From an uncultured Verrucomicrobiae bacterium (GTDB taxonomy: Bacteria > Verrucomicrobiota > Verrucomicrobiia > Chthoniobacterales > JAFAMB01), in contig CAVZKG010000001.1 in assembly GCA_963775805.1 (NCBI GenBank), positions 1,030,996-1,094,995 of the forward strand: a stretch of DNA of 64,000 nucleotides, read 5' to 3'. The position numbers and the translations under genes were made by a program. This document shows, piece after piece, positions 1,211 through 54,931 of the stretch. Each line of letters begins with the position of its first letter. Positions within the stretch are counted from its first letter, which is position 1. The notes under the pieces are model-generated. The model did not search any database, was not told the DNA's origin, and was given only the letters and a program-made list of their open reading frames with translations.

Positions 1211-3031
1211 TTACATGCGGCAGATCAACAATTCTCGTTCGTAAAGCATTTCTTTCGGAAGACCTTCATGCAGGTCAAGGAAGAGTTCCTCGTGTCCAAT
1301 AACCTCAGCACGCCATGCGCCTCGATCAAATTTCTGCAGAGAATCAAAATCTTCTTTCGAAAAATCGAGTTCGGTCCAGTCCAGATCTTCGTAGTTCGGC
1401 ATCCATCCGATCGGGGTTTCCTTGGCTTTTGCGCGCCCTCTGGCTCTATCGACGATCCACTTTAAAACCCGCATGTTTTCGCTGTAACCCGGCCAAGCGA
1501 AATTCCCTTTGTCGTCTTTACGGAACCAATTCACATGGAACACACGAGGCGTTTCGCTCAATTTTCTTTGCATCGCGATCCAATGCCGGAAGTAATCGCC
1601 CATGTTGTAGCCGCAAAACGGCAGCATCGCCATCGGGTCGCGGCGCACTTTACCCACGACGCCAGCGGCCGCGGCGGTCATTTCGGATCCCATCGTAGCA
1701 CCGACATATACGCCACCTGACCAATTAAACGCCTGAAAGACCAATGGCATCGTTGTCGCCCGCCGCCCGCCAAATATCAACGCACTGATCGGTACACCGT
1801 CGGGCTTCTCCCAGTCTGGATCAATGGTGGGACACTGGGACGCAGGCGCAGTGAAACGCGCATTTGGATGAGCCGCTTTTGCGCCTGTCTCCTTCGCGAT
1901 TTGCGGAGTCCACTCTTTGCCTTGCCAATCGATCAGCCGAGGAGGAATCTCTGGTGTCATTCCCTCCCACCAAATTCCTCCCTCAGGCGTCAAAGCTACA
2001 TTCGTGAAAATCGTATTCTTCGCTAGAGCCGCCATCGCGTTCGGGTTCGTTTTCGCAGAAGTTCCTGGCGCAACACCGAAAAATCCGGCCTCGGGGTTAA
2101 TGGCAAAGAGTCGCCCTTCCTTATCCGGTTTAATCCACGCGATGTCATCTCCGACCGTCCAGACTTTCCAGCCCTTTTCTGCAAACGGCTTCGGAGGAAT
2201 CAACATTGCAAAATTCGTTTTTCCGCATGCACTCGGAAACGCCGCCGCAACGTAGGTCTTTTCGCCCTGCGGGTCTTCGACGCCGAGAATAAGCATGTGC
2301 TCCGCCATCCATCCTTCATCCCGCGCAATATTGGATGCGATTCGAAGAGCGAAGCATTTCTTGCCAAGCAAGGCATTTCCTCCGTACCCGGAGCCGTATG
2401 ACCAGATCTCGCGAGTCTCCGGAAAATGGACGATATACTTTTCCGTATTGCAGGGCCACGGAACGTCCTTTTGTCCCCGCGCGAGGGGTGCCCCCACCGA
2501 ATGCATACAAGGGACGACACGCTTTTCGCCGCGATCGATCTCTTTGTAAACCGGTAGACCGATGCGAGCCATGATCCGCATGCTGACGACGACATAGGGA
2601 GAATCGGTCAGCTGCACTCCAATTTGAGACATCGACGAACCGATAGGGCCCATGGAAAATGGGAGAACAAACATTGTGCGCCCTGCCATGCAGCCTTTAA
2701 AAAGCCGTTTGAGCTTTTTTCTCATGTCAAACGGGTTCACCCAGTTGTTCGTTGGACCAGCTGCGTACTCGGAAAGCGAACAAATGTAGGTCCGGTCCTC
2801 GACACGAGCCACATCGGTCGCGTCAGAACGCGCATAATAGCATCCGGGCCACGATTTCTCGTTTAGCTTGATGAACGTGCCGCTTTTAACGAGCTGCGCG
2901 CAGAGCAGATTATTTTCCTTTTCGGACCCGTCTACCCAATGAATCGACTGCGGCGTGCAAAGCTCCGCCATTTTTTCGATCCACCGGAGTAGGTGCCTGT
3001 TCTGACTCAGTGGCTTAGAAAACGGTTTCAT
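1211..3031 (-). CDS. pckG: Phosphoenolpyruvate carboxykinase (GTP)
   Basis: 606-aa ORF of typical full length for GTP-PEPCK. It has recognisable family blocks (SACGKTN kinase-1a loop, GDDIAW, FGGRR..PLV, NWFRKD). Confidence 0.95.
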
Positions 3032-3472
3032 AACTAGATTAGTCTACTTAGGGGTTTACTGCTCTCGTAAACGGAGGCGGTGCGCGATCTTCCGCTGACC
3101 CGAACAGCTCGCACAATGTTCAAGGAATCGTGAATCTGCATTGCAACCGTGGTCGAGTTTTGCAGCTTTGTTGATTGGGATCGACCTTTTTCCACGAAGG
3201 GTTTGTCTCAGACCTGTTATTGCCTTAGCGCTCGCCGCAGCAGGCGAATGTCTCAAACCAAATGGCATCACCAATTGATGCATTCGATTGCGCAATGGCT
3301 TGCTCAGGCGTTTCGGTAGTGCGAGCCTTTCTTCCCCCTTTCTCGCTATGAAAATAAACGCTCTAGTCTGGTCCTCTTCCAGCAAACTCGTTGAAACTCG
3401 TCGGAGTTTTCGTTTCATCGAAACGCAATTTTCCTCTCTTCCTTCTAAGGCACGCCAAAGTTTTTTTGCGAT

Positions 3473-14513: not shown

Positions 14514-14556
14514 TGGGGCGTTTACGACGGGTAGGTCGAGGTACCGGGCGTAGACC

Positions 14557-17327: not shown

Positions 17328-19277
17328 ATGACTTTCATGTCACTAATTGCTGACTCAACAGAATGGCTCGAAACCGATGGTCTCGGAGGGTTTGCGAGCG
17401 GGACTGTGTCCGGGATTCGAACACGGCGCTACCATGCGCTTTTGCTAACGGCGACCAATCCGCCGTCCGATCGCAAGGTGCTGGTAAACGGTTTCGAAGC
17501 GTGGGTTGAGACAGCGGGCAAAAAACTTTTTCTCAGTTCGCAACGGTACGCGCCGGATGTTGTTTACCCCGACGGCTCAACAAGGATCAGAAGCTTTAAT
17601 GCACGACCATGGCCGACGTGGCGATTTGGTCTCGGGAACAAACTGGAGATTCAGCAAGAGGTTTTTGTTCCGCACAACGAGTCTGCAGTCGTTCTGACCT
17701 GGTCCATCTCAGGAGGGACAGGGATTGGGGCCAAGCTGATCGTCAGACCGTTGCTTTCAGGCAGGGATTTTCATGCGACCCACCACGAAAACGGAGCGAT
17801 TCACTTCGATGCAGAAGTTCACAGGGAGCAGGTTCGCTGGAAACCGTACGGGGATATACCATCGACCGTTGCAAGAACGAATGGACGCTATCAACATTCG
17901 CCGACCTGGTACCGAAACTTTTGCTACTCCGAAGAACGCGCGCGCGGCCTGGATTTTGTCGAGGACTTGGCGAGTCCAGGACTGTTCGAATGGGATTTGG
18001 GAATAGGTCCGGCTATTTTGATTTTCTGCGCCGAAGGTTTTGCGGAAGAAATCGTGACAGACCAAACCGCAGTTGTGGAGAGTTCGAAAAGACTTCGCGG
18101 CCGCGAGCTCGAACGCCGAAGGGCATTCCCAAATCGACTGGCGTCCGCTGCGGATAGCTATCTCGTCCGGCGCGGCGCGGGCAAGACCATAATCGCCGGC
18201 TATCCATGGTTCGGCGACTGGGGCCGAGATACATTTATTTCTCTGCGGGGTCTGTGCCTCGCCGGTGATCGCCTGGAGATTGCGCGCCAGATATTGACCG
18301 AATGGGCCGGGGCCGTTTCAAAGGGAATGTTGCCGAACCGATTCCCGGATCGCGGCGTTGAACCGGAATTCAATTCGGTAGACGCCTCTCTCTGGTACAT
18401 CATTGCCGTCTTCGAGTATCTGCAGGCAGTTCGTGGTAAACCGGATATCGATGATCCACAAACGAGCGCACAGCTTCGGCTCGCAATTGAATCCATCCTC
18501 ACAGGCTATCATTCCGGGACAAGATTTCAGATCAAAGCCGACGTTGACAGCTTGCTCGCCGCGGGGAAACCGGGCGTGCAACTGACATGGATGGACGCAA
18601 AAGTCGGAGACCACGTGATCACACCCAGGATCGGGAAACCAGTCGAAGTCCAGGCGCTATGGATCAATGCGCTCTGGGTTGGACAATCAATTTCTGATAA
18701 ATGGAAACCTATATTCGCGAGAGCGTCGGAGGCATTTGCCGCTCGGTTCTGGAACACAGAAAAAGGAGAGCTCTATGATGTCGTCGATGTCGATCATCGG
18801 CCAGGCGCGATCGATTCGCTCTCGCGCCCGAATCAAATCTTCGCCGTGGGCGGCCTGCCATTGAGGCTGCTCGATATGACCCGCGCGCGGCAGGTGGTCG
18901 ATGCAGTCGAACGGAAGCTTTGGACACCCGCTGGGCCGCGGTCACTGGCACCGGGGCAACCGGGCTATATCCAGCGCTATGAAGGAGATGTCTGGCACCG
19001 AGACTCTGCATATCATCAAGGCACAGTTTGGCCCTGGTTAGCCGGTCCTTTCATCGAAGCCTGGGTAAGAGTCAACGGCGATACGTCAGAGGCAAAAAAG
19101 TTAGCAAGACAACGTTTTTTTGAACCGTTATTATCTCGCCTCGAGCTCGCTGGGGTCGGCCATTTATCAGAGATTGCGGACGCCGAACCGCCTCACGCAC
19201 CGCGCGGCTGCCCGTTCCAAGCATGGTCAATGGGAGAACTCCTGCGGCTCGACCGCGTCGTGCTAGCCACAGATTAA
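17328..19277 (+). CDS. Glycogen debranching enzyme (amylo-alpha-1,6-glucosidase family)
   Basis: N-terminal EWLETDGLGGFASGT..TRRYHALL and a C-terminal GDE domain (AGYPWFGDWGRDT, QGTVWPWL). The ATG at 17328 is preferred over the GTG at 17247. The last codons (gcc aca gat taa) lie in repeat-core-like sequence. Confidence 0.85.
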   Translation: MTFMSLIADSTEWLETDGLGGFASGTVSGIRTRRYHALLLTATNPPSDRKVLVNGFEAWVETAGKKLFLSSQRYAPDVVYPDGSTRIRSFNARPWPTWRFGLGNKLEIQQEVFVPHNESAVVLTWSISGGTGIGAKLIVRPLLSGRDFHATHHENGAIHFDAEVHREQVRWKPYGDIPSTVARTNGRYQHSPTWYRNFCYSEERARGLDFVEDLASPGLFEWDLGIGPAILIFCAEGFAEEIVTDQTAVVESSKRLRGRELERRRAFPNRLASAADSYLVRRGAGKTIIAGYPWFGDWGRDTFISLRGLCLAGDRLEIARQILTEWAGAVSKGMLPNRFPDRGVEPEFNSVDASLWYIIAVFEYLQAVRGKPDIDDPQTSAQLRLAIESILTGYHSGTRFQIKADVDSLLAAGKPGVQLTWMDAKVGDHVITPRIGKPVEVQALWINALWVGQSISDKWKPIFARASEAFAARFWNTEKGELYDVVDVDHRPGAIDSLSRPNQIFAVGGLPLRLLDMTRARQVVDAVERKLWTPAGPRSLAPGQPGYIQRYEGDVWHRDSAYHQGTVWPWLAGPFIEAWVRVNGDTSEAKKLARQRFFEPLLSRLELAGVGHLSEIADAEPPHAPRGCPFQAWSMGELLRLDRVVLATD

Positions 19278-19286
19278 AGAAAGCAG

Positions 19287-20757
19287 GCCGCAGATTGCAC
19301 AGATCGAAGGAGGGATAGCCACAGATTTCACCGATTATCACAGATTTGAGACATGAGATGGGATTCGCCGATCATCACTGTCTTCAGGCTAGCGTACCGA
19401 GTAACATCTTTTGCCGCAGATCGCACAGATCGAAGAAGGGATAGCCACAGATTTCACCGATTATCACAGATTTGAGACATGAGATGGGATTCGCCGATCA
19501 TCACTGTCTTCAGCCTAGCGTACCGGGGAACATCTTTTGCCGCAGATCGCACAGATCGAAGAAGGGATAGCCACAGATTTCACCGATTATCACAGATTTG
19601 AGACATGAAATGGGATTCGCCGATCCTCACTGTCTTCAGCCTAGCGTACCGGGAAACGTCTTTTGCCGCAGATCGCACAGATCGAAGAAGGGATAGCCAC
19701 AGATTTCACAGATTATCACAGATTTGAGACATGAGATGGGATTCGCCGATCATCACTGTCTTCAGGCTAGCGTACCGGGGAACATCTTTTGCCGCAGATT
19801 GCACAGATCGAAGAAGGGACAGCCACAGATTTCACAGATTATCACAGATTTGAGACATGAGATGGGATTCGCCGATCCTCACTGTCTTCAGCCTAGCGTA
19901 CCGGGGAACATCTTTTGCCGCAGATCGCACAGATCGAAGAAGGGATAGCCACAGATTTCACCGATTATCACAGATTTGAGACACGAGATGGGATTCGCCG
20001 ATCCTCACTGGTCTTCAGGCTAGCGTACCGGGGAACATCTTTTGCCGCAGATCGCACAGATCGAAGAAGGGACAGCCACAGATTTCACAGATTATCACAG
20101 ATTTGAGACATGAGATGGGACTCGCCGATCCTCACTGTCTTCAGCCTAGCGTACCGGGGAACATCTTTTGCCGCAGATCGCACAGATCGAAGAAGGGATA
20201 GCCACAGATTTCACAGATTATCACAGATTTGAGACATGAGATGGGACTCGCCGATCATCACTGTCTTCAGGCTAGCGTACCGGGGAACATCTTTTGCCGC
20301 AGATTGCACAGATCGAAGAAGGGACAGCCACAGATTTCACAGATTATCACAGATTTGAGACATGAGATGGGACTCGCCGATCCTCACTGTCTTCAGGCTA
20401 GCGTACCGGGGAACATCTTTTGCCGCAGATCGCACAGATCGAAGAGGGGATAGCCACAGATTTCACCGATTATCACAGATTTGAGACACGAGATGGGATT
20501 CGCCGATCATCACTGTCTTCAGCCTAGCGTACCGGGGAACATCTTTTGCCGCAGATCGCACAGATCAAAGAAGGGACAGCCACAGATTTCACCGATTATT
20601 ACAGATTTGAGACACGAGATGGGATTTGCCGATCATCACTGTCTTCAGGCTAGCGTACCGGGGAATATCTTTTGCCGCAGATGGCACAGATCGAAGAAGG
20701 TATAGCCACAGATTTCACAGATTATCACAGATTTGGGATATGAATTGGGATTCGCCA
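19287..20757 (+). repeat. Tandem array A: 126-bp unit, about 11.6 copies
   Basis: Unit starts are 19287, 19413, 19539, 19665, 19791, 19917, 20044 (1-bp insertion), 20170, 20296, 20422, 20548 and 20674. The consensus is GCCGCAGATCGCACAGATCGAAGAAGGGATAGCCACAGATTTCACCGATTATCACAGATTTGAGACATGAGATGGGATTCGCCGATCATCACTGTCTTCAGGCTAGCGTACCGGGGAACATCTTTT. Only a few biallelic positions vary. Confidence 0.95.
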
Positions 20758-20767
20758 TTTTGCCTTT

Positions 20768-21175
20768 CCCAATCTGCGATAATCTGTGCAATCTGTGGCT
20801 GTCTCGTCCCCGACCTGTTGAATCCGTCGATCGCTTTTCCCAATCTGTGATAATCGGTGGAATCTGTGGCTATCTCTCCCCGAGCCGTGGAGTCCGCTGC
20901 TTGCTTGTTCCCAATCTGTGTTAATCGGTGGAATCTGTGGCTGTCCCTCCCCGAGCCGTGGAGTCCGCTGCTTGCTTTTCCCAATCTGTGATAATCGGTG
21001 GAATCTGTGGCTGTCCCCTCCCCGAGCCGTGGAGTCCGCTGCTTGCTTTTCCCAATCTGTGATAATCGGTGGAATCTGTGGCTATCCCCTCCCCGAGCCG
21101 TGGAGTCTGCTGCTTGCTTTTCCCAATCTGCGTTGATCTGTGGCATCCCTTCTTCGATCTGTGCAATCTGTGGCC
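20768..21175 (-). repeat. Tandem array B: 70-71-bp unit, about 5.8 copies, inverted relative to array A
   Basis: Unit starts are 20768 (diverged), 20839, 20910, 20980, 21051 and 21122 (terminal variant). Each unit contains cccaatctgtgataatcggtggaatctgtggctatccc, which is the reverse complement of the array A core. Confidence 0.9.
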
Positions 21176-21257
21176 GCGCTTAACCTATTCGCTCTTTACT
21201 CGCCTAGTGGGATTTGCGATAGAGAGCACTCAAACGTCGAGAAACTACACTAATTTA

Positions 21258-21680
21258 ATGAAGCATTTCATCGCGAGTATTCTGTTTGCAGTATTGGCCA
21301 TAGGATGTGCAACTCAGTCCGCAAATCCGGATAACAACCTTGTCGCACGCGTCAAACAGAGTAAAGACGGACGAATTTCAAAAGAGGAATATACAACCTG
21401 GAATGTCGCGAGAATGTTCAGGCTCTATGACAGCGGCGCCAAGGGTTATGTTTCGATCGAGGATTGGCGAAGGCTTGAAGGGCCCGGTAGAGATGGGCTG
21501 TTCAAGAACCTGGATCACAATCACAATGGAAAAGTCACCGTAGAAGAAGCGGAAGCGAGTCCAAAGGTTCGCGCGTTGCTTGGTGGAAACTTTGCTGATA
21601 TCGACACTAATCACGATGGCTGGATCGATCAGCAGGAAGCGGCTGCATATCTTGCAAAACGGCTGAAGTACGTCCCGTAA
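21258..21680 (+). CDS. EF-hand calcium-binding lipoprotein
   Basis: It has a signal peptide with a lipobox (LAIGC) starting at ATG 21258. Two clear EF-hand loops are present (DHNHNGKVTVEE, DTNHDGWIDQQE), plus a weaker one (SKDGRISKEE). Confidence 0.7.
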   Translation: MKHFIASILFAVLAIGCATQSANPDNNLVARVKQSKDGRISKEEYTTWNVARMFRLYDSGAKGYVSIEDWRRLEGPGRDGLFKNLDHNHNGKVTVEEAEASPKVRALLGGNFADIDTNHDGWIDQQEAAAYLAKRLKYVP

Positions 21681-21739
21681 GCGCAACTTCAGGCGATAAC
21701 GAGAGTCGATCAGCGCGCATGAGCGAACTGTAAGAGCGC

Positions 21740-22303
21740 TTACATGGAGAGGAAGTTCGCCAATAACTTCTTGCCTTCACCCGTCATGATCGACTCTGGA
21801 TGAAATTGAACTCCATGAACCGGGTACTCCCGGTGACGCAAACCCATTATCTCGTGTTCAGATGTTTCTGCTACGATTTCAAGTTGGTCGGGCAGCGTTT
21901 CGCGCCGCACAATCAGCGAATGATACCGGGTTGCCTCGAACGGGACCGGCAACCCTTGAAACACTCCGTCCCCCTCGTGAATGATTGGCGAGGTTTTTCC
22001 GTGCATAAGACGAGCCGCACGCACAACTTCTCCGCCGTACACCTGCCCGATGCACTGGTGTCCGAGGCAAACTCCCAGAACCGGAATGTGCGGCCCAAAA
22101 TGACGGATTAGGTCGTTGCTGATGCCCGCATCATCCGGCGTCCCGGGACCAGGCGAAATGCAGATCTTTTCCGGGTGCAACTCCTCCACTTCTTCGATTG
22201 ACGTGCGATCGTTGCGTCGCACAACAAGATCCGCCCCCAATTCGCCAAAATATTGGACAAGGTTGTAGGTAAATGAGTCGTAGTTATCGAGGACCAGAAT
22301 CAT
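21740..22303 (-). CDS. trpG: Anthranilate synthase component II / aminodeoxychorismate synthase glutamine amidotransferase
   Basis: 187 aa class I GATase (GVCLGHQ, HPES). It overlaps the trpE stop by ATGA. Confidence 0.9.
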
Positions 22304-24230: not shown

Positions 24231-24295
24231 CGGGAGGTTGGAAGGTTGGAGGTTCAAAGTTCGAGGTTTGGAGTTCGAAGTTCGAGGTTCGAGGG
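24231..24295 (+). repeat. Heptamer-type low-complexity repeat (GGTTCGA/GTTCGAG family)
   Basis: The sequence is gggaggttggaaggttggaggttcaaagttcgaggtttggagttcgaagttcgaggttcgagggg. The family recurs at 38.0, 38.2, 40.7 and 41.0 (inverted) and 63.5 kb (inverted). Confidence 0.8.
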
Positions 24296-38007: not shown

Positions 38008-38245
38008 GTTTGGGGTTCGAGGTTCCGGGTTCGTAGGGGCGGAGCTCCTTCTCCTTTGCTTGTATCCTTGGACGAATCGTACTCGTGATCGTCCTCGTGC
38101 TCGTACTCGGAGGCGTTCGGCGTTCACGGTTCGGCGTTCACGGTTCGGCGTTCGGCGTTCGGCGTTTGCCGTTCGCATGTAGGCGTCTCGCCTGTCCACT
38201 TAGCGGCTTCCAGGCAAGCTGCGTTCAAGGTTCCGGGTTTGAGGG
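38008..38245 (+). repeat. Cluster of low-complexity repeats (GGTTCGA type, hexamer TCGTNN run, 9 x GGCGTTC heptamer)
   Basis: 38008..38039 is gtttggggttcgaggttccgggttcgtagggg. 38080..38108 is tcgtgatcgtcctcgtgctcgtactcgg. 38112..38176 is a tandem run of ggcgttc/acggttc heptamers. 38221..38245 is gcgttcaaggttccgggtttgaggg. Confidence 0.85.
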
Positions 38246-38506: not shown

Positions 38507-39148
38507 ATGTCCGCTTCGCCTAAAATTATCGAGTTACGCAAGGTTTTAGCCGAACGGTTTCCACATCAAAACAGCCCCCCTTCCTTTTGCTTCCCCACGG
38601 GATGGGACCCGCTCGATTCCCTTCTCGGAGGAGGCTTGCCAAAAGGAGGAATCACACAACTGCTGATTCCAAATATCAGTTCAGGAGGCGCGATCGTATT
38701 ACATGAAATCATTGATGCGATGCAGGGGCTTGCACATCATGTCGTTTTGATCGATGGCAAAAATTGTTTTGAACCGATTACAGATCATCCACTTCTGCTC
38801 TGGATCCGCTGCAACAATGTCCTGCAGGCTTTGAAAGCAACCGATTTGGTTCTCCGGGACGGCAACCTGCCGCTAGTCATCCTCGATTTCAAAGAAAGCC
38901 TGGAGAAGGAACTCAGGAAAATTCCCTGCTCCGCCTGGTATCGATTTCAACGGATTACCGAAGAAAACAGAGGCACGCTGCTCACCATCACACGTCATCC
39001 CGTAATCACCAACGCACAGATTACAATTTCACTATCACGCCAACTTTCTATTGATGACTTATCAACAAGAAGATCTGATTTGATCAAATGCATTTCACTG
39101 AAAATAACTCGTTCAAGAATTCAACAGGAATATCGATATGCGTCGTAA
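38507..39148 (+). CDS. imuA: ImuA-like (RecA/SulA-fold) protein of the mutagenesis cassette
   Basis: 213 aa and first gene of an imuA-imuB-dnaE2 arrangement. The N-terminus (LRKVLAERFP....W..LDSLLGGGLPKGGITQL) is typical of ImuA-type proteins. Confidence 0.7.
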   Translation: MSASPKIIELRKVLAERFPHQNSPPSFCFPTGWDPLDSLLGGGLPKGGITQLLIPNISSGGAIVLHEIIDAMQGLAHHVVLIDGKNCFEPITDHPLLLWIRCNNVLQALKATDLVLRDGNLPLVILDFKESLEKELRKIPCSAWYRFQRITEENRGTLLTITRHPVITNAQITISLSRQLSIDDLSTRRSDLIKCISLKITRSRIQQEYRYAS

Positions 39149-40727
39149 CGCAACAGGCTTATTTGCAGTTGTTTATATTCCTTTTTACGCACTTCAATCT
39201 GGCCGGCAAAAGCGTATTTTGGAAAAATCCGCACTCGATGGAAAGCCGTTGAATCAACTCTCATTCAAGGAAATTGGAACGGATATTCCCGGTTTGAATG
39301 AAGGATGTGAATCTGATGATATGTCATTCGGTTTTCCAAATGCTCTTTTGGATCCGGATGGAGTGCATGTACTGGAATTGAATCCCGCCGCCGAGCAAGC
39401 CGGGATTCAACCCGGAATGTCAACAAGTCAAGCAATTGCCCGAGCGCCTCAGCTCCTGTTATACAGACGGAGTCCATCGACCGAACAACAACTCCAGCAG
39501 ACGTTGCTCCAGCTTGTTTACCGTTATTCGCCCTTGATCGAGGAGAGCGCCCCTGGAATGTGCACGCTCGATTTAAAAGGTAAACGGATCCGCAAACATC
39601 AGCCGTGGTTGCGCGAATTATTGGCGCAGCTTCGGGCAATCGGTCTCCAAGCGCAGGCCGGTATTGGTCCCAACCCGGAGATTGCGCTACAAGCTGCAAA
39701 GATTGCGAACCCGATCCTGGAAATCTCGGAAGATTCCGTTCTGCTTCAATCGTTGGCTCTTGAGTCCTTGAGCCCCTCCCCGTTCCTGCTGGATATCTTG
39801 AAAAACTGGGGAATCCACACCCTCGGGGCATTTACGCGGTTGCCACGGGAAGAAATTGGAGAGCGCCTTGGCCTGGAAGCTCTTTCGCTCTGGGATCGCG
39901 CTGCCGGACGCTCTTCCAAGGTGCTGCAACTCGTTCAACCACCGGAAATATTCGAAGAATCGATCGATTTCGATCAATGCCTGGAAACGCTCGAGCCGCT
40001 CCTTTTTATTTTGAGACGATTTCTGGAAAACTTGTCGCTACGGATCGAGTCCGTTTATCTATTGATCGCCGAGCTGCGTCTGACGTTGACGCTGGACGAT
40101 GGAGGAAAAATCATGCGTCTCCTGCAGATTCCAGTTCCGACACGGGACGTGGAGACGCTTTTTGGGATTGCCACCCAGTATCTTGAAACGCTGCAGACGC
40201 TAGCACCTGTCGTTGGGTTTCATCTGGGAGTGACACCAAGCCGGCCGGCGGATCATCAATTTGATCTGTTCCAGGGTGGATTGAAAGATCCGAACCGTTT
40301 TTTCCAGACATTGGCGCGCCTGGCGGCCCTGGTAGGGAACGAAAAAGTCGGTATCCCAAAAAGGGTCGACACCCATAGACCGGATAGTCTGCAGATGCTG
40401 ATACCGGAACTCAGCTGGTCTCTGAGAGAGGTCAAAACCAATATGGCTCCAAAAACCGGGCCTGGCCTGCGCCGGTACCGGCCCGGGATCATCGCCCGAG
40501 TGGAATTAAATGGTGGCAAACCGGCCTGGATGCACAGCAGCGTGATCTCAGGAAGAGTCTTGGAGACACGTGGTCCATGGAAACTATCCGGCAACTGGTG
40601 GGATCGAGTCCGATGGGAAACCAATGAATGGGATATCGCGCTGGATAATGGAGGGATTTACCGCATTGCCCAGTGCGGAGCCACTACACTCCAGGACCAA
40701 TGGGAGATTGTCGGGGTGTACGATTAG
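39138..40727 (+). CDS. imuB: ImuB, Y-family DNA polymerase-like protein
   Basis: 529 aa with a Y-family/ImuB-like N-terminus (FAVVYIPFYALQ). It sits between imuA and dnaE2 and overlaps imuA by 11 nt. Confidence 0.8.
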   Translation: MRRNATGLFAVVYIPFYALQSGRQKRILEKSALDGKPLNQLSFKEIGTDIPGLNEGCESDDMSFGFPNALLDPDGVHVLELNPAAEQAGIQPGMSTSQAIARAPQLLLYRRSPSTEQQLQQTLLQLVYRYSPLIEESAPGMCTLDLKGKRIRKHQPWLRELLAQLRAIGLQAQAGIGPNPEIALQAAKIANPILEISEDSVLLQSLALESLSPSPFLLDILKNWGIHTLGAFTRLPREEIGERLGLEALSLWDRAAGRSSKVLQLVQPPEIFEESIDFDQCLETLEPLLFILRRFLENLSLRIESVYLLIAELRLTLTLDDGGKIMRLLQIPVPTRDVETLFGIATQYLETLQTLAPVVGFHLGVTPSRPADHQFDLFQGGLKDPNRFFQTLARLAALVGNEKVGIPKRVDTHRPDSLQMLIPELSWSLREVKTNMAPKTGPGLRRYRPGIIARVELNGGKPAWMHSSVISGRVLETRGPWKLSGNWWDRVRWETNEWDIALDNGGIYRIAQCGATTLQDQWEIVGVYD

Positions 40728-41035
40728 CGTTCGGCGTTGCCGAACGCTGTTCGAGGTTCGGAGTTCCGGGTTCGGAGTTCAGAGGAAGGGCGACAATCTA
40801 GCGTGATGGCAATCAGCTATTCCGGAAAAGAGAAGATGCGTTCAAAAGTCGCCTGCCTCTGGTGTATTGCGTGGTGCCGACACCGCATCCATTTAATTGC
40901 GGCTCCCGCCGCGCTGTGATCTCTGTGCGATTCTTCCCTTTCCCAACTCTAAACATCGAACCCTGAACTCAGAACTCCAAACATCGAACTTGGAACCGCG
41001 AACTCGGAACCGCGGACGGCGAACGCCGTTCGCCT
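40727..41035. repeat. Inverted-arm element between imuB and dnaE2 (MITE-like architecture)
   Basis: The left arm is the gcgttcggc-gtt-gccgaacgc hairpin plus gttcgaggttcggagttccgggttcggagttcag. The right arm (40945..41033) carries the same motif family in reverse complement and ends in ggcgaac-gcc-gttcgcc. The centre carries hairpin motif accgcatccatttaattgcgg at 40882..40902. Confidence 0.65.
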
Positions 41036-44000
41036 ACGTCGAACTACATGCTCGCAGCGCATTCAGTTTCCTGCGAGGAAGTTCTTCACCGGAGCATCTG
41101 GCTTTTACGGCGGCGGGTCTGGAATTGCCGGCTTTGGCGCTCTGTGACCGTGACGGTGTTTTTGGAGCCCCGCGGTTTGATGCGGCTGCGAAAGAATGCG
41201 AGATACGCCCGATCGTCGGCAGCGAATTGACGATGGAAGATGGTTCGGTTTTGCCGGTACTCGTGCAATCGAGAATCGGGTATCAGAACCTGTGCCGCCT
41301 GCTTTCACGAGCCAGGCTTCGTTCCCCAAAGAACGAAAGCTCAATTTACTGGTCAGAGTTGCCGGAGTTCCGAGAGGGTTTGATCTGTTTAACAGGCGAT
41401 GAAGAAGGGCCTGTTCATCGGGCCTTGGCTACTGGCAATTTTTCGCATGCCAATCAATGCATGACCTTGCTCAAAGAGGTTTTTGGAACAGACCATCTGT
41501 TTGTAGAAATTCAGCGGCACGCGCTTCGTGCAGAGCAATGGCTGAACCAGCAGTTGTCCGAGCTTGCCGATCACCACCAATTGAAGCTCGTGGCAACCAA
41601 CGGTGTATTGTACGGCACACCGGATCGCCGCACCGCGTTCGATGTATTCACCTGCGCGCGAAATCACACCGACCTCGATGCGGCAGGGCGATTACTGGAA
41701 CCGAATACGGAGCGGCACCTTAAATCGGCGGCGGCGATGCGGGAATTATTTCCGGATCTGCTGCACGCAGTGGCTAACACTGTGGCTATTGGCAACGAAA
41801 TCGAATTCACCCTGAAAAATCTCGGTTATCAATTTCCCAGGTTCCCCGTACCGCAGGGTGAAACCATGGACAGTTTTCTTGAAAAAGTGGTTTGGGAGGG
41901 CGCCCGGCAACGCTACGGCAATTCCTTTGCGACACCGGTTCGATCGCAGATTGAGCGTGAACTGGCGTTGATTCATAGGCTCGAGTTTTCAGGTTATTTC
42001 CTGATTGTCTGGGATCTTGTTCGTTATTGTCGTGAATCAAATATCATGGTGCAAGGCCGTGGCAGCGCCGCAAACAGTGCGGTCTGCTACAGTCTGGGAA
42101 TCACTCCCGTTGATCCGGTCGGTGGCAACCTGTTATTTGAACGTTTTTTAAGTGAAGGCCGAAAAGGCTGGCCGGATATCGATCTTGATCTGCCAAGCGG
42201 CGATCGTCGTGAACAGGTGATCCAGGAGGTTTATCGGCGTTACGGAAGACTCGGCGCAGCGATGACGGCGAATGTGATCACATTTCGGGGTCGAAGCGCG
42301 ATGCGTGAAACCGGCAAAGCATTGAATCTGCCGGAAGATGTCATGGATCGTTTCTCGCGTTTGTATGCCAACGGCGATTTCCCGCACACGCTTCAAACAG
42401 CGGATCAATTGCGCCAGGCAGGCCTTCCAGCAGAACACCCACGGGTTAACGCATTTCTAGAGGTTTATCATGCCATCCAGGGGTTACCTCGTCATCTGGG
42501 GCAACATTCCGGCGGGATGGTGATTTGCGAAGGACAACTGGATACGGTCGTTCCACTTGAAAACGCCACGATGCCAGGACGCACCGTGATCCAATGGGAT
42601 AAAGATGATTGCGAAGATCTGGGCATTGTGAAAGTGGATTTGCTCGGTCTTGGAATGATGTCGGCGCTGCAGGATTCGATCGAGATCTGCGCCCAGCGAA
42701 ATCGTCCTGTGGATCTGACCGCCCTGCCAAAGGATGATCCATTGACCTACGAAATGCTTTGCCGGGCCGACACGATCGGTGTCTTCCAGGTCGAAAGCCG
42801 CGCACAGATGGCCACGTTGCCCCGGATGAAACCGCAAACATTCTACGATCTTGTAATCGAAGTGGCTATTATCCGGCCCGGACCGATTCAAGGTCATCTG
42901 ATGAATCCATACCTGGCCCGGCGCGAAGGGATAGAAGAAGTTCATTATCTTGATCCCCGGCTTGTTCCCGTCTTGCAGCGGACCCTTGGTGTTCCACTTT
43001 TTCAAGAGCAGATGCTGAAAATGGCGATGGTCATGGCCAATTTTTCCGGAGATGAAGCCGAAGAACTGCGCAGAGCGCTCAGCTATCATCGTTCGCAAGA
43101 AAGAATGCAACGTGTCGAAACAAAGTTGCGGCTTGCACTTCGTTCAAACGATGTCAGCGACGAAGTTGCCGAAAAAATTCTCGCAGCCATTTCCTCCTTT
43201 GCGTTGTACGGATTTCCGGAATCGCACGCGATCAGTTTCGCGATGATTACCTACGCCAGTTCCTGGTTGAAAGTCCATCGGACTGTAGAGTTTTTCGTCG
43301 GATTGCTGAACAACCAGCCGATGGGATTTTATTCTCCCGCTACCCTGATCAAAGATGCTCAACGTCACGGAATCAAAATCCGCCCGGTTTCCATCACCGA
43401 TTCCGAATGGTTCTGTATCGTCGAATCCAATCTGTCGCTCAGGCTCGGCTTTTGTCTGACACAGGGAATCAGCCGTGCACACACCGAACAGATGATTGCT
43501 GAGCGCCGGCAGAAGGTATTTCATAACATACAAGATTTCCGTAATCGCACTGCATTCGATCGAGACGAGTTACGGATCCTGGCAAAATCCGGGGCACTCA
43601 ATCCCTTGATCGGGCATCGGCGTGACGCGCTCTGGGCAATCGAAAATGAACTCTATCAGGGAGAATTATTTTCTGAAGTTCACGAAGAATCGGTCTCTCC
43701 GCTGGCCCCGATGCAGCCTGTAGAACGCCTTGCAGCCGATTTTTCCACGATGCATCTCACAACCGGTCCCCACCCTATGGCCTACATCCGGTCATCGTTG
43801 CCGGACGATATCTGGCGCAGTGCGGATCTGCCGTTTGGAGAGAACGGCTCCCGGTTGGGTGTTGCCGGTCATGCGATTTGCCGACAACGCCCTGGCACAG
43901 CCAAAGGCTTTGTCTTTATCAGTCTGGAAGATGAAACCGGCATCTCAAACGTTATTGTCACCCCGCAGTTTTTTGAGAAGAACCGGCTCGTGATCACACA

Positions 44001-44127
44001 GGAACCCTTTCTGCTGATCGAAGGTGTCCTGCAAATCCATTCAGGGGTTATTCACGTTCGTGCCGAAAAGATCGAACGCTTGCCGTCGCTCGCCATCGAG
44101 ACCGCCGATTCGCACGATTTCCAATAA
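40990..44127 (+). CDS. dnaE2: Error-prone DNA polymerase III alpha-subunit paralogue DnaE2 (ImuC)
   Basis: It has a PHP-domain N-terminus (YVELHARSAFSFLRGSS) and DnaE-family blocks throughout. The start is uncertain. The ORF track uses TTG 40897, inside repeat sequence. TTG 40990 is the nearest in-frame start upstream of the conserved N-terminus. Confidence 0.9.
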   Translation: MEPRTRNRGRRTPFAYVELHARSAFSFLRGSSSPEHLAFTAAGLELPALALCDRDGVFGAPRFDAAAKECEIRPIVGSELTMEDGSVLPVLVQSRIGYQNLCRLLSRARLRSPKNESSIYWSELPEFREGLICLTGDEEGPVHRALATGNFSHANQCMTLLKEVFGTDHLFVEIQRHALRAEQWLNQQLSELADHHQLKLVATNGVLYGTPDRRTAFDVFTCARNHTDLDAAGRLLEPNTERHLKSAAAMRELFPDLLHAVANTVAIGNEIEFTLKNLGYQFPRFPVPQGETMDSFLEKVVWEGARQRYGNSFATPVRSQIERELALIHRLEFSGYFLIVWDLVRYCRESNIMVQGRGSAANSAVCYSLGITPVDPVGGNLLFERFLSEGRKGWPDIDLDLPSGDRREQVIQEVYRRYGRLGAAMTANVITFRGRSAMRETGKALNLPEDVMDRFSRLYANGDFPHTLQTADQLRQAGLPAEHPRVNAFLEVYHAIQGLPRHLGQHSGGMVICEGQLDTVVPLENATMPGRTVIQWDKDDCEDLGIVKVDLLGLGMMSALQDSIEICAQRNRPVDLTALPKDDPLTYEMLCRADTIGVFQVESRAQMATLPRMKPQTFYDLVIEVAIIRPGPIQGHLMNPYLARREGIEEVHYLDPRLVPVLQRTLGVPLFQEQMLKMAMVMANFSGDEAEELRRALSYHRSQERMQRVETKLRLALRSNDVSDEVAEKILAAISSFALYGFPESHAISFAMITYASSWLKVHRTVEFFVGLLNNQPMGFYSPATLIKDAQRHGIKIRPVSITDSEWFCIVESNLSLRLGFCLTQGISRAHTEQMIAERRQKVFHNIQDFRNRTAFDRDELRILAKSGALNPLIGHRRDALWAIENELYQGELFSEVHEESVSPLAPMQPVERLAADFSTMHLTTGPHPMAYIRSSLPDDIWRSADLPFGENGSRLGVAGHAICRQRPGTAKGFVFISLEDETGISNVIVTPQFFEKNRLVITQEPFLLIEGVLQIHSGVIHVRAEKIERLPSLAIETADSHDFQ

Positions 44128-54624: not shown

Positions 54625-54822
54625 AGAAGGGAAGGCAGAATTAAGAAGTAAGAAGGAAGAAGTAGAGAATCGCATCCGCTCCAGAGTAAATGCCACGGAG
54701 CGGCCACTCTCTGGAGAGCGTTCTAGTCCGTATTTCTGCCTTCTTACTTCCCACTTCTGCCCTTACTTCCCACTTCTGCCTTCTTCCTTCTTAATTCTGC
54801 CTTCTTAATTCTGCCTTCTTAC
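54621..54822. repeat. Inverted-arm element between the NtrC-family gene and uvrA (CTTCTTA/ATTCTGC heptamer arms)
   Basis: The left arm aagaagggaaggcagaattaagaagtaagaaggaagaagtagag is complementary to the right arm ...cttcttccttcttaattctgccttc... The centre holds two mutually exclusive hairpins (CCGCTCC/GGAGCGG and CTCCAGAG/CTCTGGAG). It is followed by the hairpin-motif variant at 54823..54843. Confidence 0.7.
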
Positions 54823-54931
54823 ACCGCATCCTCTCGGTTGCGGCTAACTTCTCTCTGAACGATGCAATCCCAAAACCACTGGTGGCAAGATCGCTCTTAT
54901 GCTTTGGTGAGGGTTTACCGGTATTCAACCG

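Follow-up and report, generated by a model that had tools for sequence, protein, structure and literature searches.

What fills the 1.9 kb between a glycogen debranching enzyme gene and an EF-hand protein gene in an uncultured Verrucomicrobiae bacterium, and does this DNA serve its host? The stretch analyzed here, called the window, comprises 64,000 nucleotides of contig CAVZKG010000001.1, and the block in question is made of repeats that carry the seven-base word CACAGAT. The block is probably a young, lineage-specific, non-coding satellite that arose when the arms of a pre-existing palindromic element were amplified in tandem, the element being one of a widespread word family linked to GxxExxY genes. 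By analogy with described repeats, the best reading of its class is an orphan, tandemly amplified palindromic element similar to repetitive extragenic palindromes (REPs) and bacterial interspersed mosaic elements (BIMEs) or to miniature inverted-repeat transposable elements (MITEs).

Two opposed arrays, which an earlier reading of the window alone (the original prediction) had put at about 11.6 units of 126 bp and about 5.8 units of 70-71 bp, are recovered by Tandem Repeats Finder. The 126-bp array occupies 19287-20756 on the + strand with 11.7 copies (95% matches, score 2609). The 71-bp array occupies 20760-21130 in the opposite orientation with 5.2 copies (91% matches), or about 5.8 if the terminal partial unit, which extends to 21175, is counted. 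One unit of the 126-bp array is 127 bp long through a 1-bp insertion. The core CACAGATTNCACNGATTATCACAGAT is present 12 times on the + strand and five times on the - strand, every copy within the repeat block, where 100 shuffles give an expectation of 0. In all 17 cores three CAC[N]GAT words follow one another at intervals of 9 and 10 bp with a C in front, which is the rule by which the family discussed below was defined in this analysis.

Forward words of the form C[AG]CNGAT number 70 within 19268-20732 and reverse words 19 within 20772-21172, about 89 words within the 1.9 kb of the block. The words of the 126-bp unit are 9 and 10 bp apart in the triple and 9 bp apart in an upstream doublet, with 22 bp from doublet to triple, and spacings over the whole block are mostly 9, 10 and 22 bp. 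The original prediction was right about the 9-10 bp pitch of these heptads and about a core common to both unit types, but not about the length of that core, given as 38 nt. The homology between the 126-bp and 71-bp units covers about 60 nt (78-85%), because the upstream two-word doublet is present in the 71-bp unit too, in degenerate form. The arm alignment also replaces the proposed inter-core segments of 88 and 33 nt with private segments of about 66 nt in the 126-bp unit and about 11 nt in the 71-bp unit.

The block is inverted about its centre. Its outer termini, predicted to be inverted repeats, are identical at 29 of 31 positions when GGCCGCAGATTGCACAGATCGAAGGAGGGAT (19286-19316) is compared with the reverse complement of 21145-21175; terminal inverted repeats, a criterion for MITEs, are thereby present at the block ends. 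Many longer inverted arm pairs of 60-79 nt (72-85% complementary) are found within the block. The arms converge, with the + array on the left, the - array on the right and a hairpin in the centre. This junction, at 20690-20815, has a computed DNA fold of -30.4 kcal/mol (z = -6.6) in which ~33 positions are paired.

The 11 full 126-bp units are mutually distinct. Seventeen sites vary among them, seven with a minor allele in at least three units, and of the 21 pairs that the common biallelic sites form, 17 have all four allele combinations. Such a mosaic is consistent with repeated unequal exchange or with gene conversion, as had been proposed from the mixed combinations of biallelic variants.

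The two closest relatives, L122 and L124, have debranching enzymes 81% and 78% identical to that of the window and keep the order ruvC-lipB-TPR-AAA-GDE-EF-hand-...-trpG-trpE-hisI-COX2. Their debranching-enzyme/EF-hand spacers are merely about 150 bp (L122) and about 125 bp (L124), and the array is absent from both. The L122 spacer contains a single hairpin, GCCGCACATTCCGCAGATTCGAGCAGGGGCAGCCAC ... GAATCTGCGTCACCTGTGGACGGC (z = -3.0), the arms of which align with the left and right outer termini of the window array. Neither the rest of the window nor the fetched loci searched contain anything similar to the 66-nt private segment of the 126-bp unit, and 241 million metagenome records (JGI metagenome contigs) contain no exact match to it. 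The short spacers of the relatives, the single hairpin of L122 and the unmatched private segment therefore indicate that the array is a recent private expansion of a pre-existing element; judged from these alignments, it does not belong to the conserved parts of the locus. No second copy of the array element is present elsewhere in the window. Outside 19240-21200 the word CACAGAT occurs seven times on the + strand and 0 times on the - strand, a small count against the roughly four per strand expected.

A small palindromic element would already have lain between the debranching-enzyme and EF-hand genes, and both of its arms would then have been amplified. Direct word repeats and a hairpin-prone centre could favour slipped-strand or template-switch duplication. 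From two units on, unequal homologous recombination and gene conversion would enlarge the array and shuffle its variants, the outcome being a left arm of 12 126-bp units and a right arm of five to six 71-bp units. Nothing points to a function for the host beyond, at most, a possible role of the central hairpin in terminating transcription or insulating the two co-directional genes from each other. A scan of the block found no intrinsic terminators. A selfish or neutral satellite is the likeliest identity of the block.

Elements of the same construction are widespread. They were sought with the degenerate core CACAGATNNCACNGATNNNCACAGAT, which has 21 specified bases and an estimated chance expectation of ~0.3 in 596 Gb. 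In a one-genome-per-species collection this core is present in at least 120 stretches from more than ten phyla. The matches listed include Bacteroidota, Verrucomicrobiota, Planctomycetota, Acidobacteriota, Chloroflexota and Gemmatimonadota, as well as several proteobacterial classes, a candidate phyla radiation (CPR) genome and an ANME-1 archaeal genome. The viral contigs of IMG/VR contain the core in 65 stretches and the related word CACGAAT in 36; the permuted control word CAGACAT and the reversed control word TAGACAC have 0 matches there. The word itself therefore matters, not mere repetition or base composition. A concern attached to the original prediction, that the core might be ubiquitous generic filler, holds as far as ubiquity goes (many phyla) but not for filler, given the empty controls and the ordered opposed arrays at other loci.

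Aligned cores give the family consensus (A/T-rich)TTTnnC-CACAGATTA-CACAGATTww-CACAGATT. At least two inverted words within 150 bp lie downstream of 45 of 121 cores and upstream of only eight. The polarity of the family is fixed and convergent (CACAGAT words, loop, ATCTGTG words), as it is in the window array. The elements are mostly intergenic and have no orientation preference toward neighbouring genes. When arm is compared with arm, inter-word spacers match at 63% of positions versus 43% expected, and the words persist. In L002, L025 and L031, other palindromic repeats are nested in the loops of CACAGAT hairpins, which suggests repeated insertion into hairpins or outward palindrome growth.

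Tandem reiteration recurs in this family. Among the matches listed, 2-5 tandem units are present in about 10 of 185 loci that were found with a single core. Two direct cores 20-50 nt apart are found in at least 120 stretches of metagenome contigs, and the loci of this second scan include arrays comparable with the window block: L313 (10.8 copies of a 101-bp unit over 1108 bp), L236 (18.2 copies of 57 bp over 1025 bp), L261 (11.9 copies of 60 bp), L284 (6.9 copies of 147 bp) and L277 (13.4 copies of 48 bp). The array of L265 (15.2 copies of 57 bp) is ended by the contig end. Opposed arrays are present in L111, a metagenome-assembled genome of Marinilabiliaceae (Bacteroidota), in which ~2.3 direct units are followed by ~5 inverted 51-bp units. 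The window block is the largest among the arrays seen, yet typical in form. Opposed word arrays are also found in gut metagenomes upstream of a Fur-like regulator gene (L270, L274, L283, L298, L312, L317, L318, L331 and L346). At this locus, which is without a GxxExxY gene, copy number differs between related strains on both arms, and it offers a natural series for how word arrays grow.

GxxExxY genes (TIGR04256; PF13366, PDDEXK_3) were found beside family elements by profile search. Among the matches listed, genome and viral-contig loci contain eight such genes, six of them within 217 bp of a core, and tandem-array loci contain 24, of which 23 are within 400 bp of a core. Often the gene has forward words upstream of it and reverse words downstream, or it lies within runs of complete hairpins. 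The orientation of arrays toward it is inconsistent across family loci. A first clustering of neighbouring genes gave no obligate partner and four GxxExxY genes only; the link became visible with the profile search and the tandem-array loci. The association was also followed in reverse, from six distinct GxxExxY loci chosen by protein similarity alone. CACAGAT hairpins are present in the flanks of four and CGCAGAT hairpins in those of one, and the sixth carries a different word. A GxxExxY similarity search of viral contigs yielded just three loci. Orphan copies are found as well: among the matches listed, 185 pattern-selected loci, more than half of them complete 8-kb stretches, contain eight GxxExxY genes. 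What the original prediction could not see from the window is the membership of the block, in amplified form, in a widespread palindrome family linked to these genes.

The structural model of the 124-aa GxxExxY protein has a pLDDT (predicted local distance difference test) of 95.7. Its best match in the PDB is Cas4 SSO0001, a marginal one (E = 1.7e-3, TMq 0.59), and lambda exonuclease is matched also. Going by this marginal match, the protein may be a minimal RecB/Cas4-like nuclease core. No solved structure was matched by its sequence, and a comparison with defence-system models gave no match beyond a weak Cas4 hit. In many metagenome strains (L350-L369; L350 1501-1875 is an example), a GxxExxY gene with flanking CACAGAT hairpins lies between sbcD and sbcC. 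These two genes encode a hairpin-cleaving nuclease.

One hypothesis is that a GxxExxY protein encoded elsewhere acts in trans and binds or cuts the words. More broadly, and tentatively, the analogy with other repeat systems would make CACAGAT-type palindromes the cis partners of GxxExxY (PDDEXK_3) Cas4-like nucleases in a selfish or domesticated cross-phylum system, from which gene-less hairpins could spread and amplify to kilobase satellites.

Several observations weigh against the block being an amplified member of this family without a function of its own. A profile search of all open reading frames (ORFs) of at least 50 aa found no GxxExxY gene in the 64-kb window, and the window array is therefore an orphan. 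The leader of the window units is GGGATAGC-CACAGAT and lacks the T-rich leader (TTTnnC) of the family consensus. Neither a target-site duplication nor a clean empty site was recognized in the comparison with the relatives, where L122 has a small element and L124 a spacer too divergent to stand for an empty site. Nor does amplification of the arms account for where the 66-nt private segment came from. Conserved words with variable spacers would, from the sequence comparison, be the signature of a protein-binding site and leave room for function. The length and copy number of the array are known from one assembly, in which the source contig is 3.0 Mb long.

An unlikely but better surviving alternative, drawn from an analogy, is that the block is a mobile, non-autonomous REPIN/MITE-like element (REPINs being REP doublets that form hairpins), the word arms of which would be terminal inverted repeats recognized in trans by GxxExxY, so that the array would consist of nested insertions and not of products of recombination. 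The gene lies between inverted word arms much as the transposase gene of REPIN-RAYT systems, that of the REP-associated tyrosine transposase (RAYT), is flanked by its own repeats (PMC3116915, PMC3337134). It is absent from more than half of the complete 8-kb pattern-selected loci, the occurrence in many phyla and viral contigs suggests horizontal spread, and the palindromes nested in the loops of L002, L025 and L031 are of the kind that insertion could produce. The units of the window, however, keep exact register (126 bp and 71 bp) and are 91-95% identical, which fits duplication and not independent insertions. Target-site duplications were not seen, the modelled protein looks like a minimal nuclease core without transposase features, and transposition is undocumented in the papers searched. 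Within the 64-kb window, Pfam scans of ORFs of at least 150 aa, excluding ORFs nested in longer ones, found no RAYT and no transposase, integrase, cas, Rep or partition genes; that the window has no transposase had been predicted.

REP/BIME clusters and REPIN-RAYT systems, known from Enterobacteria and Pseudomonas, are by analogy the closest described counterpart of the CACAGAT family. REP clusters consist of inverted dimers reiterated in tandem with flanking DNA, the unit being a 20-40 bp palindrome with a terminal GTAG or CGTC (PMC3733652). The likeness extends to short intergenic palindromes, inverted pairs that form hairpins, tandem-reiterated dimers, a nuclease-type gene flanked by repeats, and many copies with no gene nearby. 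In contrast to REPs, the arms in the window start with C-CACAGAT and have no GTAG or CGTC head, and the family arms are 7-mer words at 9-10 bp pitch, with one word common to many phyla. The family gene encodes a 124-aa protein that is predicted to be of the PD-(D/E)XK (Cas4-like) type, not an HUH Y1 transposase, and mobility is putative. With no GTAG or CGTC tags and a different nuclease, the CACAGAT family is therefore not a member of the REP/REPIN families. The block further resembles MITEs, of which Correia/NEMIS, ERIC and Nezha are examples, in having terminal inverted repeats, no coding capacity, an intergenic position, and presence or absence that differs between relatives. It differs from them in that the arms themselves are tandemly amplified to 1.9 kb and no target-site duplication was identified. 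We know of no cognate transposase for an element with CACAGAT words.

Somewhat less likely again is a functional protein-binding array in which the phased words titrate or load a host DNA-binding protein, in the manner of iterons, of ParR or omega-type heptads, or of a datA-like sink. Iterons, the parC sites bound by ParR and omega-repressor heptads consist of short words that recur about once per helical turn, in direct as well as inverted sets, and the 9-10 bp pitch of the window words is close to this. A binding array would also account for words that are kept while the spacers between them vary, for a word specificity so strict that permuted and reversed controls have 0 matches, and for the sheer number of words (about 89 in 1.9 kb). 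Against this, the array is missing from the closest syntenic relatives, each unit contains 66 nt of private sequence without evident use, family elements have no preferred orientation to flanking genes, and copy number at another locus differs from strain to strain as it does for unconstrained DNA. Known arrays of this type also differ in context: the window array is unconserved, lies among chromosomal housekeeping genes and has no adjacent rep, par, repressor or other regulator gene, and binding is hypothetical. No replication-initiator or partition neighbour, plasmid match or GC-skew turn was found at the array, and a comparison of the array region with plasmids gave no similarity. The iteron, protein-loading or nucleoid-organizing site suggested in the original prediction is not borne out, given the two closest relatives without the array, the unmatched private segment and the lack of a rep or par gene nearby.

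It is very improbable that the units are tandem genes for a small RNA (such as a ToxI-like RNA of a type III toxin-antitoxin system, beside a nuclease) or for a 40-aa peptide. A 40-aa ORF that starts with ATG (42 codons) is found in each 126-bp unit, weak sigma-70-like matches (TTGAGA-18-GATCAT) occur once per unit in six units, and family arrays adjoin a small nuclease gene. The ATG is changed to ACG in 3 of 11 units, however, one unit is frameshifted by a 1-bp insertion, and variable sites are distributed over codon positions 1, 2 and 3 as 4/7/6, with no third-position bias. The coding reading, which the original prediction had also excluded, was rejected on the loss of the ATG, the frameshift and the lack of a signature of purifying selection. 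A per-unit RNA or DNA structure was rejected also: compared with shuffles, the 126-bp unit has fold z-scores of -0.26 and +1.78 and the 71-bp unit of -1.16 and -0.27. Rfam at gathering thresholds leaves the block unmatched and finds a tRNA elsewhere in the window; at permissive thresholds the central hairpin has merely chance miRNA-like hairpin matches. Unlike in ToxI/ToxN systems, there is no nuclease gene of the GxxExxY type in the window, and arrays have no fixed orientation to the GxxExxY gene.

That the assembler mis-expanded a repeat is just as improbable: the full array is on one long contig only and short-read assemblies break there, but the 11 distinct units have ordered variants, both edges are exact in an independent assembly, and arrays of the same kind and similar size are found in unrelated assemblies. 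In that independent short-read assembly (Logan, ERR11523669), two contigs are identical to the window up to 19315 and from 21054 on, and both terminate within the array, the behaviour expected at a true repeat.

Three known kinds of repeat array were considered and set aside. A CRISPR array has in common with the block a short repeat (~26 nt) at regular spacing, and the family is associated with what the structural model suggests is a distant relative of Cas4. It was rejected, in agreement with the original prediction: whole units repeat at 95% and 91%, and the inter-core segments are the same in every unit. There are therefore no unique spacers, and the block also differs in its two opposed arrays and its lack of cas genes. 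A cluster of DnaA boxes was dropped since the boundary TTnnCCACA alone resembles TTATCCACA, the inner words misfit TTWTNCACA and there is no GC-skew turn. Direct repeats of the PhoB/OmpR type were dropped because the pitch is 9-10 bp versus 11 bp, and a regulon is not expected to be common to many phyla.

The features of the block and of its immediate flanks are listed in the table.

Table. Positions in the window of the repeat block, its parts and the flanking genes.
Feature	Position	Strand	Basis
Glycogen debranching enzyme gene (GDE_N + GDE_C), 646-aa product recorded as P0001	17337..19277	+	Pfam
Solitary first CACAGAT word, overlapping the debranching-enzyme stop codon	19268..19274	+	sequence reading
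Left outer terminus GGCCGCAGATTGCACAGATCGAAGGAGGGAT, two-word doublet; homologous to the left hairpin arm of relative L122	19286..19316	+	
Eleven full 126-bp units (one 127 bp): word doublet, 22-bp step, triple-word core, 66-nt private segment	19287..20673	+	
Twelfth, truncated unit; its triple-word core (20707-20732) is the left arm of the central hairpin	20674..20759	+	
Central junction hairpin: core, ~30-nt loop, inverted core; canonical form of the element family	20704..20800	n/a	
5.2 units of 70-71 bp: degenerate doublet, triple-word core, GGGAAAAGCAA	20760..21130	-	
Right terminal partial unit; its intact two-word doublet is the right outer terminus	21131..21175	-	
Stretch upstream of the EF-hand gene, conserved in relatives, outside the array and unaffected by it	21185..21260	+	alignment
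Gene for an EF-hand protein, downstream of the block; its syntenic position is kept in L122 and L124	21261..21680	+	Pfam

The debranching-enzyme gene of the window ends in ...LATD and the stop codon (GCC ACA GAT TAA, 19265-19277), with a CACAGAT word over the stop and one extra residue compared with the relatives; the enzymes of the latter end in ...LAD or ...LAE without the word. The conserved stretch in front of the EF-hand gene probably serves this gene as promoter or 5' untranslated region. The other genes of the window are housekeeping genes: trpG/trpE, hisI, ruvC, lipB, cytochrome oxidase genes, a cassette of imuA-like, imuB and dnaE2 genes, uvrA and pyrimidine genes. Between the EF-hand gene and trpG, the relatives have a gene for an NDH2-type oxidoreductase with cNMP-binding and CBS domains (L122 8819-10840; L124 8659-10767), which is missing from the window at 21680-21740.

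L124 has, between lipB and the TPR gene, a four-helix-bundle gene (23S_rRNA_IVP/TIGR02436, Avd-like; 2416-3126) within ~100-bp inverted repeats of GACGAG-like words; the corresponding interval of the window is only 43 bp long (14514-14556). From the sequences, this difference looks like the insertion or deletion of a cassette with an ORF inside a palindrome. Ralph and McClelland are said to have described intervening sequences (IVS) in Leptospira 23S rRNA in 1993. Such IVS, with their 23S_rRNA_IVP/TIGR02436 ORF, are like the CACAGAT family and the L124 cassette in having a small ORF enclosed by long inverted repeats. They differ from the family in gene family and words, and the window array has no ORF of this kind and lies outside rRNA.

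Word repeats of other kinds are present in the window. The spacer between hisI and COX2 (24234-24294) has about 8.6 tandem copies of GAGGTTC-type heptads. Two tracts, at 38076-38175 and 40945-41030, lie upstream of and inside the imuA-like/imuB/dnaE2 mutagenesis cassette (38507-44127); the repeats there include ATCGTACTCGTG x2.8, GGCGTTC x9, AACTC/GAACC words and the palindrome GGCGAACGCCGTTCGCC, and GTTC and GAAC words have opposite orientation on the two sides of imuA/imuB. TTCTGCC and TTCTTAC(TTCCCAC) word repeats are found at 54734-54821 between a sigma-54 response regulator gene and uvrA. A hairpin, ACACCGCATCC...TTGCGGCT, occurs twice (40880-40912 and 54821-54850), each time adjoining a word-repeat tract, and may be a separate dispersed element.

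No prior description of the CACAGAT-word family, or of a partnership with GxxExxY, was found in Rfam or in the papers searched. The block itself, which looks neutral, matters mostly as a hazard for assembly and as a sign that the genome of this verrucomicrobium, placed near Chthoniobacterales by named homologues, has changed very recently. The family accounts for a source of spurious ORFs (HRFHRL and KSVKSV peptides) and of contig breaks in metagenome assemblies. The family is a more interesting lead than the block itself: it supplies a concrete hypothesis, open to test, for the substrate of GxxExxY proteins, a very common family of small, functionally uncharacterized nucleases, and it may be a second case, besides REPIN-RAYT, in which a nuclease is accompanied by hairpin repeats of its own.

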